This document shows, piece after piece, positions 4,223 to 12,593 of a DNA stretch of 32,403 nucleotides. Origin of the DNA: a virus (taxonomy: Duplodnaviria; Heunggongvirae; Uroviricota; Caudoviricetes); IMG/VR virus record IMGVR_UViG_2617270968_000008, positions 1-32,403 of that record, one strand, 5' to 3'. The stretch's first letter is position 1, and each line of letters opens with the position of its first letter. A program made the translations under genes and the position numbers. The notes below the pieces were generated by a model, which was not told the DNA's origin, did no database searches, and saw only the letters and a list, made by a program, of their open reading frames with translations.

Positions 4223-4414
4223 TTAAAGACCTGCCGGGATTTCGTTATTATCCTGGTGAATAACTTTATCGACCGGGTAACAGTTACCGGGAATTTTCTG
4301 TTCGGTTGCTGCAGTCACACACTCCTGCATTGTCCTGTGAACACTGACTGCAATATCAACTGGCTCTCCGGAAACAAGAAAAACTGTCAGAACAAGTGCA
4401 AATGCTGTATTCAT
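4223..4414 (-). CDS. Small secreted/membrane protein (hypothetical)
   Basis: Internal start MNTAFALVLTVFLVSG gives an N-terminal signal-peptide-like hydrophobic segment; AGGA about 8 nt upstream; start ATG overlaps the stop of the upstream small ORF (ATGA). Confidence 0.35.
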   Translation of the reverse strand: MNTAFALVLTVFLVSGEPVDIAVSVHRTMQECVTAATEQKIPGNCYPVDKVIHQDNNEIPAGL

Positions 4415-10352: not shown

Positions 10353-10432
10353 CCTGGCCTGAAGCATTAACAACGGTAGGAATTGCGATGGCGGTGGCGC
10401 TGGTGGTGTATTCGATTTGCCGCTGGGGATAA
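10349..10432 (+). CDS. Possible 27-aa hydrophobic peptide
   Basis: ATGA-coupled to the upstream gene; encodes [27 protein letters not shown], a single transmembrane helix; too short to call firmly. Confidence 0.2.
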
Positions 10433-10643
10433 AAACGGTTTGCGGGAAAAGGAGAGTTAAGTAGAATTGCAGCGGGTGCTTGAGGCTATCTGTCTCAGGC
10501 ATGAACACCAAAAGGCAGATAGAGAAAAGCCCCAGTTAACATTACGCGTCCGGCAAGACGCTTAACATTAATCTGAGGCCATATCTATGCTCTACACACG
10601 TAGGTTAGCCTCTTACGTGCCGAAAGGCAAGGAGAAGCAGGCT

Positions 10644-10799
10644 ATGAAGCAGCAAAAGGCGATGCTAATCGCCCTGATCGTCATCTGTTTAACCGTCATT
10701 GTGACGGCACTGGTAACGAGGAAAGACCTCTGCGAGGTACGAATCCGAACCGGCCAGACGGAGGTCGCTGTCTTCACAGCTTACGAACCTGAGGAGTAA
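10644..10799 (+). CDS. hokD: Hok/Gef family type I toxin (HokD/RelF-like)
   Basis: 51-aa product MKQQKAMLIALIVICLTVIVTALVTRKDLCEVRIRTGQTEVAVFTAYEPEE has the Hok/Gef signature (transmembrane helix, TRKxLCE, conserved C-terminal half). An in-frame upstream ATG at 10587 with its own GAGG gives a 70-aa Mok-like extended frame. Confidence 0.8.
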   Translation: MKQQKAMLIALIVICLTVIVTALVTRKDLCEVRIRTGQTEVAVFTAYEPEE

Positions 10800-10867
10800 G
10801 AGACCTGGCGGGGGAGAAATCCCTCGCCACCTCTGATGTGTCAGGCATCCTCAACGCACCCGCACTT

Positions 10868-10896
10868 AACCCGCTTCGGCGGGTTTTGTTCTTTTT
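10868..10896 (+). terminator. Rho-independent terminator downstream of hok
   Basis: Stem AACCCGC / loop TTCG / GCGGGTT followed by TTGTTCTTTTT; the same hairpin recurs at 12216-12243. Confidence 0.7.
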
Positions 10897-11043
10897 GTGA
10901 AAAAAATTCCCTTAAAGGAGATTTTTTTAACTAAAAAGGTTTACTTTGCTTTCGTATATGGTAAATTTTAGGAATTAGAATTTAAGCGCCCATCAGGCTT
11001 GCGTTAGGCAAGTCTGCTAAATCAACAAATTGAGGATAAAATC

Positions 11044-11403
11044 ATGGCACTCACTGAATTCGGTAAGGCCGTTAGAAAAGCGAGGATCGATACTGACAGT
11101 ACTCTTCTGACTATGTCTCAAGAACTGGGCACTACGCCAGCGTTTCTTAGCGGTTTAGAAACTGGTAGCAAAAAAATACCTCTGAAGTGGGTTAAGAAGA
11201 TTGATTCTTACTTCAAGGCCAAAGGTGTAGAAATTGAAGGGTTACAGGAGCTAGCGGCAGTTGCGAATGACTCAGTTCCAGTAAACGGTTTGTCTCAGCA
11301 ACAGAAAATGCTTGTAGCGGGATTCGCTAAGTCGCAGTTTACGCCGGAACAGCTAAAGAGTTTTGCAGATTTATTGCAAAAGATTAATAACAATGAGGGG
11401 TAA
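11044..11403 (+). CDS. XRE-family HTH transcriptional regulator
   Basis: 119-aa ORF with GAGGA RBS; N-terminal HTH-like segment; 2 nt upstream of the ImmA-like peptidase gene. Confidence 0.65.
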   Translation: MALTEFGKAVRKARIDTDSTLLTMSQELGTTPAFLSGLETGSKKIPLKWVKKIDSYFKAKGVEIEGLQELAAVANDSVPVNGLSQQQKMLVAGFAKSQFTPEQLKSFADLLQKINNNEG

Positions 11404-11405
11404 TT

Positions 11406-11882
11406 ATGTATCAAATGAGAGGTAACAGGGTGTCACCGATGCAAGAAGAAGAAATAGCCTACAGAGCTATAAACTTCTGTAATGCTATTGGTCTTACAGC
11501 CTCAAAGCGCAAAAGAAAGCGTTATGATATGTTCTTTGAAAGCCTGTCAATTTATGGGGTTACTCTTGACGTCAGGACCGACAAAGAGTGGGAGGCTCTG
11601 ACGTATGATCTAACTATCGGACATTGTGACCCCGCTTCTCTAACAATTACGGTTCCCAATAAAATATATGTGAATGCTTGCCTTGGGGAAGAGCATGCAC
11701 TTGCTGTTATCTTCCACGAGCTAGGTCATTTGCTTCTTGGACACAAAGCAGTTTTACACTTTTCAGTTAAAGAACCTACTCGTATTGAGGATGCAGAATG
11801 GCAGGCAGATACATTTGCGGATATCGTACTGGAAACAATTGGCGTGAGAACACAACAGATGTCGTTCGATTTTTATATGTAA
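11406..11882 (+). CDS. ImmA/IrrE-family zinc metallopeptidase
   Basis: 158-aa ORF with HExxH motif (VIFHELGHLLLGH) and downstream acidic residues; the classic partner of an XRE regulator. Confidence 0.65.
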   Translation: MYQMRGNRVSPMQEEEIAYRAINFCNAIGLTASKRKRKRYDMFFESLSIYGVTLDVRTDKEWEALTYDLTIGHCDPASLTITVPNKIYVNACLGEEHALAVIFHELGHLLLGHKAVLHFSVKEPTRIEDAEWQADTFADIVLETIGVRTQQMSFDFYM

Positions 11883-12049
11883 AAGCCCTGCGCTAACAGG
11901 GCTTTTAGGGACGGAAAGTGCGCTAACACATTCCGTAGTGTATGGAGATAATCCAATCACAACACTTTTTGTAGACAAGCGAAGTGTAGTGGTTCTCCCA
12001 ACAAAGTGCAACCTGTGTGGATTCACAGGTGAGCAGGGAAAACGAAATC

Positions 12050-12199
12050 ATGGCAATGGGTACCTGTCGCAAATGTGGCTGTCCATGTGAGATCATTTTT
12101 CGCTACTCTGTGTGTGTAGATGGTGTAATGCGCCACGCGAAAAAAGGGAAGCCTTTCCCGATCCCACTTTGCAGTTGTAGTGGCAAGCACGCAGCTTGA
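12050..12199 (+). CDS. Small Cys-rich protein (zinc-ribbon-like), hypothetical
   Basis: 49-aa ORF from MAMGTCRKCGCPCE with 8 Cys in CxxC-like spacing; AGGGA RBS; lies inside the terminator-bracketed cassette with XRE and ImmA. Confidence 0.35.
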   Translation: MAMGTCRKCGCPCEIIFRYSVCVDGVMRHAKKGKPFPIPLCSCSGKHAA

Positions 12200-12215
12200 T
12201 ATTCAGTACTGACAA

Positions 12216-12243
12216 AACCCGCTTCGGCGGGTTTTGTTTTTTC
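12216..12243 (+). terminator. Rho-independent terminator (second copy)
   Basis: Identical hairpin AACCCGCTTCGGCGGGTT followed by TTGTTTTTTCTT; direct repeat of the 10868-10896 terminator. Confidence 0.7.
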
Positions 12244-12314
12244 TTGGCATTCAGGTTTACAATTCGCACGTCAGCCTGAACAACTGGCACCTGCTGCGCC
12301 AGCAGAGAAAGACG

Positions 12315-12593
12315 ATGGCGCACAATACCAAATCACACAATTCTGATAATTCAGCTGTCTTTGCCAGCAGGCACGGGCGGCGTTCCCGCACATTCAAATC
12401 TGATTGGTACCAGCATCCCCCATGTACTGAAGAACAAGCTGAATGGCTAATTCAGTGCTACCGCAGACACGGATACGAGATAAAGAAAGCCCTCAGCCTC
12501 GATTATCGTCACTGGATAATCTCCGTCAGGCTTCCTTACTCTGAACGCCCACCGCGTCCGTCCCGCACATTCCAGCAACGCATCTGGAGGTAA
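12315..12593 (+). CDS. Hypothetical protein
   Basis: 92-aa ORF from MAHNTKSH; immediately precedes the DUF968 gene. Confidence 0.4.
   Translation: MAHNTKSHNSDNSAVFASRHGRRSRTFKSDWYQHPPCTEEQAEWLIQCYRRHGYEIKKALSLDYRHWIISVRLPYSERPPRPSRTFQQRIWR

Follow-up and report, generated by a model that had tools for sequence, protein, structure and literature searches.

The window analysed here is the whole of IMG/VR virus record IMGVR_UViG_2617270968_000008, 32,403 nt of a tailed phage (Caudoviricetes), and the element under study is a three-gene cassette at positions 10897–12243. From left to right the unit appears to consist of a promoter/operator region, a gene for an XRE-type regulator (xre), a gene for a zinc metallopeptidase of the ImmA/IrrE type (immA), a structured leader, a small gene for a 49-amino-acid cysteine-rich protein, and a terminator of its own. 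Comparison with related Escherichia coli prophages showed that the cassette is an insertion at the terminator of the resident hokD gene. We consider it slightly better than even that it is a mobile, self-contained accessory unit (a 'moron') that entered at this terminator and carries a switch of the ImmR/ImmA type which would release the small protein. Coordinates are those of the window, and genes and hairpins are given on its + strand.

The cassette is an insertion at the hok terminator

A search of 5426 complete E. coli genomes showed the window to be identical to part of a lambdoid prophage beside ompW in E. coli SCPM-O-B-12142. The annotation of that prophage begins with an integrase, an exonuclease, dicB, racR, a YdaS-like helix-turn-helix (HTH) gene and a YdaT-family gene, and continues with replication genes, hokD, a 'helix-turn-helix domain-containing protein', an 'ImmA/IrrE family metallo-endopeptidase', a hypothetical protein, DUF968, RusA and an antiterminator. 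A first reading of the DNA made from its letters (the sequence-only reading) had given the prophage a RacR-type immunity switch of its own, and the RacR/YdaS/YdaT genes of the identical record agree with it.

The whole 2.2-kb interval from the hok side to the downstream gene was present with the same flanks in 48 of the 5426 genomes, and many others matched the flanks only, joined across 847–853 bp. Exact excision predicts a span of 853 bp (a query of 2201 nt less the repeat spacing of 1348), and the empty site measured 852 bp. Strain WS3294A and most of the listed E. coli records have such an empty site, with hokD, a single terminator, the downstream gene and nothing between. The comparison with insert-free prophages that the sequence-only reading had proposed thus gave the single-terminator state, and the self-contained inserted unit it had postulated was recovered, the empty sites being shorter by the repeat spacing. 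The cassette alone was found in 56 E. coli genomes (48 complete at ≥98% identity, all chromosomal). Its G+C content is 41–44%, against 48–57% in the flanks.

The insertion is bracketed by a direct repeat of 27 nt (10868–10894 and 12216–12242; 26/27 identical, start-to-start spacing 1348), as had been noticed at the outset. The exact 23-mer AACCCGCTTCGGCGGGTTTTGTT occurs only twice in the window, and 100 shuffles gave zero matches. Both copies score as intrinsic terminators in a terminator scan and fold at −13.8 kcal/mol (z −4.5) on the left and −19.2 kcal/mol (z −6.0) on the right. The left copy, the hairpin AACCCGCTTCGGCGGGTT with its T tract (10868–10894), is the resident hok terminator and the sole copy at empty sites. 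The right copy (12211–12243) contains the repeat at 12216–12242 and has its stem extended to 12 bp. In the WS3294A alignment the one hairpin carries the upstream flank of the window's left copy and the T tract of its right copy, so that the insertion junctions fall inside the repeat.

The duplicated terminator had been taken as the footprint of the insertion. The insertion stands; the repeat is probably not a product of it. IMG/VR relatives with 84–94% ImmA identity sit where neither hok nor the downstream gene occurs; they still terminate in AAACCCGCTTCGGCGGGTTTT, and similarity to the window ceases directly after it. Because this sequence is kept in unrelated contexts, the right copy is a terminator native to the cassette. 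The hairpin, or a slightly degraded copy, also lies just upstream of the cassette promoter in at least three of these contexts (L109, L110 and L111/L112), and the sequences further upstream are mutually unrelated. A Lelliottia cassette is bracketed by two ACCCGC...GCGGGT terminators with differing loops. With a terminator of its own and the same hairpin upstream in other contexts, the repeat is better read as recombination homology than as a duplication made by insertion, and a target-site duplication arising de novo is probably the poorer explanation. The hairpin is probably a short homology common to many phage terminators, and recombination through it would insert, and could excise, the cassette. 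Since the cassette terminator and the hok terminator are identical over 23 nt, insertion most likely took place by short-homology recombination that left one copy on each side. Recombination between the repeats would also accord with a cassette-bearing ancestor and deletions in the single-terminator prophages.

Two unrelated genes might instead share a very common UUCG-loop terminator by chance, without any recombination. The hairpin CCCGCTTCGGCGGG is indeed common in enterobacterial phage DNA, recurring 130 nt downstream of the cassette of Klebsiella phage MK422450 and in several loci. Coincidence has only a slim chance of being the explanation: the identity spans 23 nt and takes in the AA beside the hairpin as well as the beginning of the T tract, the junctions seen against empty sites fall inside the repeat, the same arrangement is found in at least three other contexts, and other cargo at the hok site has a partial hairpin copy on its far side.

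Morons of lambdoid phages, and the exchange at boundary sequences described by Juhala and Hendrix, involve autonomous units of promoter and terminator between conserved backbone genes, with deviating G+C content. The present cassette, with a terminator of its own and a putative promoter, likewise lies between two backbone genes and has a G+C content unlike its flanks. It differs in being bounded on both sides by the same hairpin terminator in several independent contexts, which points to the terminator itself as the likely recombination site.

The resident hok/sok locus lies outside the cassette and is intact. It consists of the sok antisense-RNA region (10474–10649; Rfam RF01794, 117 bits against a gathering score of 59, E 1.7e-27) and the hokD toxin gene (10644–10799; Pfam HOK_GEF 2.9e-23, annotated as hokD by the Prokaryotic Genome Annotation Pipeline (PGAP) in the identical record), whose terminator is the insertion point. 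In an Rfam scan of 10400–12400 at E up to 10, sok was the only match above its gathering score. The hok 3' untranslated region and terminator (10808–10889) gave a sub-threshold match to isrK (27 bits, gathering score 50, E 0.0024), for which the terminator hairpin alone is probably responsible.

Other cargo was seen at the same site. In E. coli 14EC029 and LH50-c (L084 and L085, 744–1136) it is occupied by a gene for a 130-amino-acid hypothetical protein (WP_000737636 / WP_039720016), flanked by a partial hairpin copy (ACCCGCTTCGGCG) on the left and a full copy on the right. In Qin of K-12 the site is taken by rem, with no repeat. The hok terminator is thus a recurrent insertion point, a hotspot for small cargo.

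The xre and immA genes

The xre gene (11044–11403) encodes a 119-amino-acid HTH repressor-type protein. The XRE assignment falls short in Pfam and is supported by other profile comparisons only: the protein lies below the Pfam cut-offs for HTH_31 (15.9 against 27 bits) and HTH_3 (13.5 against 23 bits), and a profile of 11 orthologues matches solved XRE-type regulators (9sf2, 3.6e-5; ClgR 3f51, 5.4e-5; 5woq, 1.2e-3). In addition, PADLOC HTH_VI matches xre at 1.1e-6, and the Neisseria orthologue has a precomputed HTH_19 match. The C-terminal region of about 55 residues (motif MLVAGFAKS) is conserved, with M89-x-x-A92-G93-F94-A95-x-S97 invariant.

Upstream of xre, a putative sigma-70 promoter was read by eye at 10940–10967 (−35 TTTACT at 10940–10945, a 16-nt spacer, −10 TAAATT at 10962–10967); a strict consensus scan did not pick up a cassette promoter. 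A candidate XRE operator, AACTAAAAAGGTT (10929–10941), overlaps the −35 element and has the family consensus TTAACC-W5-GGTTGAA. The operator-like palindrome, about 100 nt upstream of xre, is visibly similar in 18 of the 19 loci whose upstream regions were inspected, the remaining one (L006) having a run of N there. When 12 sources were screened with a stricter pattern, 6 had the palindrome at this place, and the surroundings of the module gave no other match. The conserved palindrome and the highly conserved HTH together fit autorepression by XRE. The xre 5' leader further contains a hairpin or palindrome, CAGGCTTGC-GTTAG-GCAAGTCTG (10994–11016; −13.9 kcal/mol, z −4.2), at whose position the Klebsiella phage has a different palindrome, ACAGGTT-ATG-AACCTGT.

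The immA gene (11406–11882) follows the xre stop codon after 2 nt, so the tight coupling first noted between the two genes is confirmed. It encodes a 158-amino-acid single-domain M78 zinc metallopeptidase. The HMM (hidden Markov model) search that had been suggested for the HExxH protein places it in the M78/ImmA-IrrE family, above the curated Pfam cut-off (Peptidase_M78, PF06114: 24.6 bits against 22, E 2.4e-5), and PHROG 87 ('metallo-protease') matches at 7e-17. Members of the family have 143–174 residues. Across 29 homologues, H104, E105, H108, E128 and E131 are invariant, the first three forming the H104-E105-xx-H108 motif. The best solved-structure match of the ImmA profile is a weak one to CapP (7t5t, E 0.047); it covers the peptidase core only (CapP residues 82–154), with the zinc ligands aligned and E131 opposite the CapP zinc ligand of the EAQAD motif. 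PGAP places the immA start at 11439 (147 residues), and 11406–11438 of the window encodes MYQMRGNRVSP. These N-terminal 11 residues (MYQMRGxRVxPM) are conserved in the 29 homologues, so we prefer the start at 11406; the PGAP start is probably too short.

A scan of the three cassette proteins against PADLOC-DB v2 returned no known defence system. The best matches were HTH_VI (1e-6), RmrA (1e-3), capP (3.5e-3) and capH (0.01), those to RmrA and capP being weak and confined to the HExxH region.

The third gene encodes a conserved small protein

The third gene of the module (12050–12199) encodes a basic, all-beta, cysteine-rich protein of 49 residues with the pattern CxxCxxxC...CxC. In the E. coli records inspected, PGAP has not annotated its open reading frame (ORF). 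The ratio of nonsynonymous to synonymous substitution rates is 0.09 in the comparison with the Klebsiella phage and 0.01 in that with Lelliottia (21 synonymous and 2 nonsynonymous changes); the other two frames give about 1.5. The small ORF is protein-coding and under strong purifying selection. It contains 7 cysteines, not the eight first counted, and five of them are conserved: C6, C9, C13 and C41 are invariant among the homologues and C43 nearly so.

Structure prediction, another of the checks proposed, gave an all-beta AlphaFold2 model with five strands (mean predicted local distance difference test score 79). The protein probably binds zinc; small zinc ribbons, with two Cys knuckles (CxxC...CxC) on a beta-hairpin scaffold, would be a candidate class. 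An exhaustive profile search recovered 16 cluster representatives only, essentially all of them short proteins. Scans of the protein and its variants against Pfam, NCBIfam and PHROGs gave nothing or PHROGs of unknown function (4533, 33859 and 21154), a PDB sequence-profile search with 30 small-protein sequences gave none at E up to 10, and PADLOC gave no credible match. The sole lead is a sub-threshold match to Arm-DNA-bind_4 (E 0.03).

The triad is cargo of temperate phages

From the alignment of the 29 ImmA homologues, 80 genomic loci were fetched, covering Gamma-, Beta- and Alphaproteobacteria and a few other phyla; the counts below are over 82 loci. In 80 of them the gene immediately before immA encodes an XRE homologue, and a small ORF of 35–52 codons begins about 150–230 nt past the immA stop in almost every one. 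A single HMM covers this downstream ORF in 60 of the 82 loci; the family includes forms with cysteines (CxxCxxxC...CxC) and cysteine-free forms, with a common core (V/I)(I/V)(F/Y)R..I...GK.I......F.I. A second type of small basic ORF, which matches phrog_21154, was recognised by eye in about 13 more. In roughly 74 of the 82 a small, basic, beta-rich ORF is linked to xre–immA.

The surroundings of this triad vary widely. In the lambdoid Klebsiella phage MK422450 the three genes, at about 75% DNA identity, stand between an SppA-like gene and dinI, the small ORF being unannotated. A version in E. coli and other Enterobacteriaceae, with 51% ImmA identity, occurs at prophage ends in the order dinI, SRAP, xre, immA, 49-codon ORF, with umuC–umuD convergent to it. 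The triad stands within the tail operon of a Mu-like prophage in Neisseria meningitidis, after mor in a Pasteurella Mu-like phage, and beside the integrase in Pseudomonas phage H66 (F116-like context), where it corresponds to gp69-gp68-gp67 and the 36-residue gp67 is annotated. A relative is present on 169 IMG/VR contigs, and there were zero matches in 72,556 plasmid records. The diversity of phage contexts and the lack of plasmid matches mark the module as temperate-phage cargo, independent of hok and of any one immunity system. The sequence-only reading had offered the cysteine-rich peptide or the neighbouring hok as the payload of the pair. The cysteine-rich protein proved to be its conserved partner. 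As for hok, many of the E. coli records listed have hok/sok at cassette-free sites, and there is no hok beside the triads of the Klebsiella phage, the Neisseria Mu-like prophages, phage H66 and other contexts; on this distribution hok was rejected as payload.

Two loci call for separate mention. In Providencia rustigianii (L004, 4494–5140) the twin hairpins described below, the leader and the small ORF are tandemly duplicated; by eye the two proteins are about 75% identical, and the four hairpin cores are identical. In Lelliottia wanjuensis (L020, 4900–5000) what we take, by eye, to be the 3' end of ssrA (transfer-messenger RNA) lies on the opposite strand about 100 nt past the cassette terminator; if so, the cassette would sit at the very edge of an ssrA-integrated element.

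The pair might alternatively form a toxin–antitoxin (TA) or abortive-infection module, in which the M78 peptidase is a toxin that cuts a host target (compare Lit acting on EF-Tu), XRE doubles as antitoxin and autorepressor, and the small protein has an accessory role or confers specificity. Lists of putative type II TA systems contain Xre-COG2856 pairs, among them the Brucella ZnMP/HTH-Xre pair, whose XRE has 118 residues (PMC2701414, PMC10538038), and an ImmA/IrrE peptidase is part of the PD-lambda-2 defence system (PMC9519451). One homologue is named 'toxin' by a source, several have precomputed matches to PF10463 (Lit-type Peptidase_U49), and the window ImmA has a weak NCBIfam Lit match (E 0.13). 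We nevertheless think this account unlikely. The absence from 72,556 plasmid records would be unusual for an addiction module, the window ImmA does not reach Peptidase_U49 at E ≤1, PADLOC gave no known system, and a near-universal third gene with an elaborate leader has no role in a two-component TA pair; moreover, the Brucella papers report stress phenotypes, not toxicity (PMC2701414, PMC10538038).

The range of contexts also bears on a role in prophage induction, with the small protein acting as an antirepressor of the RacR-type repressor and providing an induction route for a prophage that is not SOS-cleavable. The prophage repressor is of the RacR type, which is not known to have an S24 autocleavage domain. 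Modules of a transcription factor and a small-protein antirepressor are known from plasmid-like phages, and known antirepressors are repressor-specific (PMC10432266). Lambdoid, Mu-like and F116-like phages, whose immunity regions are unrelated, nevertheless share closely related small proteins, and most related prophages of the lineage carry no cassette, which makes an auxiliary induction module improbable.

A structured leader precedes the small gene

The 167-nt gap between immA and the small ORF is conserved and structured. Beyond the twin hairpins, the leader proper (11937–12049) contains a GGAG...CUCC pairing, a conserved GGTTCTCC motif and a hairpin at 12013–12028. For 11 enteric-type sequences, RNAalifold and pair counts gave 97% of cells paired and compensatory change at 10 pairs; shuffles gave 4.1 ± 1.3 (0/500 reached this number) and slid controls at most 3, the structure having been predicted from the same alignment that was used for the counts. 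No Rfam family was found in 11883–12049 even at E up to 10. Alternative pairings among GGAG, CUCC and the Shine-Dalgarno sequence would suit translational gating.

The stem-loop CTGTGTGGATTCACAG (12013–12028, not assigned to a strand) also has the form of a LexA box, CTGT-N8-ACAG, and is the only such site in the window. The motif is found at the same position in 7 other enteric loci and is absent from the non-enteric lineages with the triad. Elsewhere the helix has compensatory variants (Pantoea CCGT..ACGG), with a conserved loop TGGGTT; given this covariation and conserved loop, LexA binding at 12013–12028 is only a hypothesis. In several phages CTGT-N8-ACAG sites flank the module, at 4328, 6619 and 8551 of L088, 5968 and 6408 of L002, and 1469 of L097. 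Apart from the leader site, L088 has one some 57 nt before dinI and another directly before the umuD-like (Peptidase_S24) member of a umuDC pair. The Klebsiella phage has its second site ahead of dinI, and H66 has a box upstream of gp70, the gene just before the module. The module thus keeps company with genes bearing SOS-box-like sites.

These sites raise the question whether the small ORF is an independent SOS gene under host LexA, acting at the leader box, with xre–immA only physically linked to it. The box is the sole one in the 32.4-kb window, stands 37 nt upstream of the small-ORF ATG and is kept in the 7 enteric loci, with the similar sites before dinI, the umuD-like gene and gp70 pointing the same way. 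We see little chance of this being correct: the compensatory changes and conserved loop fit a hairpin rather than a LexA site, non-enteric lineages have the triad without the motif, no credible promoter coincides with the box, and the linkage to xre–immA in most of the loci argues for functional coupling.

Twin hairpins share a loop within many loci

Two further hairpins stand between immA and the leader proper; the sequence-only reading had noted neither these nor the leader. Hairpin 1 (11881–11906; −16.8 kcal/mol, z −4.4), AAAAGCCCTG-CGCTAA-CAGGGCTTTT, begins within the immA stop codon, shows compensatory changes and has the core TGCGCTAACA at 11889–11898. Hairpin 2 (11911–11936), about 30 nt further on, has another stem and the same loop and closing pairs, with TGCGCTAACA at 11919–11928. 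Loop and closing pairs are common to both hairpins within a locus, and the loop varies between loci. The loop CGCTAA is found in the E. coli window and in Providencia (four copies, owing to the tandem duplication), CTAGGA in the Klebsiella phage and Lelliottia, TTGACG in Erwinia, Pantoea and Enterobacter, its reverse complement CGTCAA in both hairpins of Atlantibacter, and TTGGCA in Rheinheimera; other shared loops occur in Orbaceae, Pseudomonas, Aquitalea, Neisseria and Moraxella. An automated comparison of 95 distinct regions found a shared core of at least 7 nt in 21% of loci and in 0.4% of cross-locus pairs, an undercount for the loops, as the minimum-energy fold often misses hairpin 2.

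Several partners for the loops were considered. No residues of XRE or ImmA track the loop class, nor does the small protein, the Lelliottia protein being 96% identical to that of E. coli with a different loop. No sequence complementary to the loops was found within the module. A −35 element was rejected, since the E. coli and Klebsiella loops do not resemble one. Across the family, the loop of hairpin 1 has the loose consensus TTRRCG or its reverse complement CGYYAA, and this independence of orientation looks more like a constraint at the DNA level, or flipping of the hairpin loop, than a constraint on an RNA loop. In Candidatus Schmidhempelia bombi (L012, position 277) a third copy resembling hairpin 2, TATATTTGCGGATATA, lies about 3 kb upstream of the module; whatever recognises the loops may have an additional site there.

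A proposed model of the switch

M78 peptidases cleave XRE repressors after DNA damage, and the logic of repressor and M78 peptidase is established for ICEBs1/phi105, DdrO/IrrE and CapH/CapP (bioRxiv 10.1101/2022.04.27.489752; bioRxiv 10.64898/2026.05.16.725639; PMC12828697; PMC10904395). By analogy, an XRE dimer bound to the AAC(C/T)-N5-GGTT operator over the −35 element would hold the operon repressed. A stress signal, DNA damage or phage infection, would lead the M78 peptidase to cut XRE in its conserved C-terminal domain, the operon would be derepressed, and the small beta-rich, probably zinc-binding protein, presumably co-transcribed with the pair, would be made as the output of the module, its translation perhaps also gated by the structured leader. 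The SOS-gene neighbours (dinI, umuDC and SRAP), present in two independent contexts, hint at DNA damage as the trigger.

Several observations weigh against this reading. XRE misses its Pfam cut-offs, and the 158-residue ImmA has neither the linker nor the GAF domain by which CapP and IrrE sense single-stranded DNA. Fold and sequence searches with the small protein detected no relative of known function. A sigma-70 scan for an independent promoter of the small ORF returned only an implausible match, with its −10 overlapping the ATG, a pattern search revealed no second XRE operator before the small ORF or neighbouring genes, and hairpin 1 could terminate much of the transcription; with neither an operator nor a convincing promoter before it, linkage is the sole ground for coupling the small ORF to XRE. 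Finally, the switch model leaves the twin same-loop hairpins unaccounted for.

Other features of the prophage

The downstream phrog_1212 gene (12315–12593) contains a 19-nt imperfect direct repeat (12377–12395 and 12554–12572, 84% identity), which yields two R-x-SRTF motifs in the protein. Between the lysis genes and the terminase, at about 22227–23856 of the window (L003, 23728–25357), lies a convergent pair annotated as 'sce7726 family protein' and 'beta family protein', which looks like another accessory insertion, possibly of the defence type, in the same prophage.

Relation to known systems

The two-gene xre–immA core is already known and annotated. It resembles ImmR/ImmA of Bacillus ICEBs1 and phage phi105, in which a mobile element encodes an XRE-type repressor and, next to it, a small HExxH (M78) peptidase of a single domain. 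ImmA has about 170 residues, a size similar to that of the window peptidase. In ImmR/ImmA the peptidase cleaves the repressor after DNA damage (bioRxiv 10.1101/2022.04.27.489752). That pair is a master switch controlling excision, whereas the pair studied here belongs to an accessory cassette beside a separate RacR-type switch, with xre, immA and a dedicated small ORF in that order on one strand, and the similarity to ImmR is at the family level only (7t8i, E 0.96).

DdrO/IrrE (PprI) of Deinococcus and CapH/CapP, known from CBASS and other defence operons, likewise combine an XRE repressor, with a C-terminal oligomerisation domain in those systems, and an M78 peptidase. IrrE and CapP are three-domain proteins of about 250–290 residues (peptidase, HTH-like linker and GAF) and have an interdomain groove to which single-stranded DNA binds (bioRxiv 10.64898/2026.05.16.725639, PMC10904395). 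The window peptidase, with 158 residues and no linker or GAF domain, does not have the three-domain form that defines CapP, the PADLOC matches reach only E 0.01 for capH and 0.0035 for capP, and the proposed output is one 49-residue protein instead of a defence operon or repair regulon.

The putative Xre-COG2856 TA pairs of Makarova (2009) and the Brucella ZnMP/HTH-Xre pair share the order of an XRE of about 118 residues and then a small HExxH peptidase, in islands and prophages (PMC2701414, PMC10538038); that description does not include a third gene, a leader or a lack of plasmid matches. The modules that Silpe et al. (2023) described in plasmid-like phages also join a phage regulator to a small effector protein (about 50–60 residues) without homologues, but consist of an activator and a divergent antirepressor small ORF with no peptidase (PMC10432266). 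Here a repressor and a peptidase accompany a co-oriented small ORF, and the small proteins form one family across unrelated phage types. PD-lambda-2, an anti-phage system of E. coli found experimentally by Vassallo et al. (2022), has an XRE-type HTH and an ImmA/IrrE peptidase domain, fused in one protein and flanked by a HigB-like toxin and a P4-antitoxin-like gene (PMC9519451); the cassette has no PADLOC match to it. Literature searches returned only the general families, with no account of the third gene, its twin-hairpin leader or its hairpin-bounded mobility.

Implications

We suggest, tentatively and with clearly less confidence than we attach to the mobile switch itself, that the triad may be an undescribed three-component stress switch of Proteobacterial temperate phages. 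Its output would be a new beta-rich family of 35–50 residues with zinc-clasped and cysteine-free members. The twin loops might serve cognate recognition (binding of an RNA or single-stranded DNA hairpin, possibly as trigger or feedback) with no counterpart in ImmR/ImmA, DdrO/IrrE or CapH/CapP, and the terminator hairpin would be the vehicle between phage genomes.

Protease–repressor switches govern the excision of mobile elements, the radiation response of Deinococcus and defence operons. In the present case such a core is packaged with a dedicated miniprotein as free-moving cargo of unrelated temperate phages. The cassette probably offers a concrete example of inter-phage cargo exchange via a shared terminator hairpin, and its twin same-loop hairpins pose a defined sequence puzzle. 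If the proposed logic is true, it would be a compact, testable case of how a prophage may gain from one stress-released small protein, be it in defence, SOS modulation or competition between prophages.

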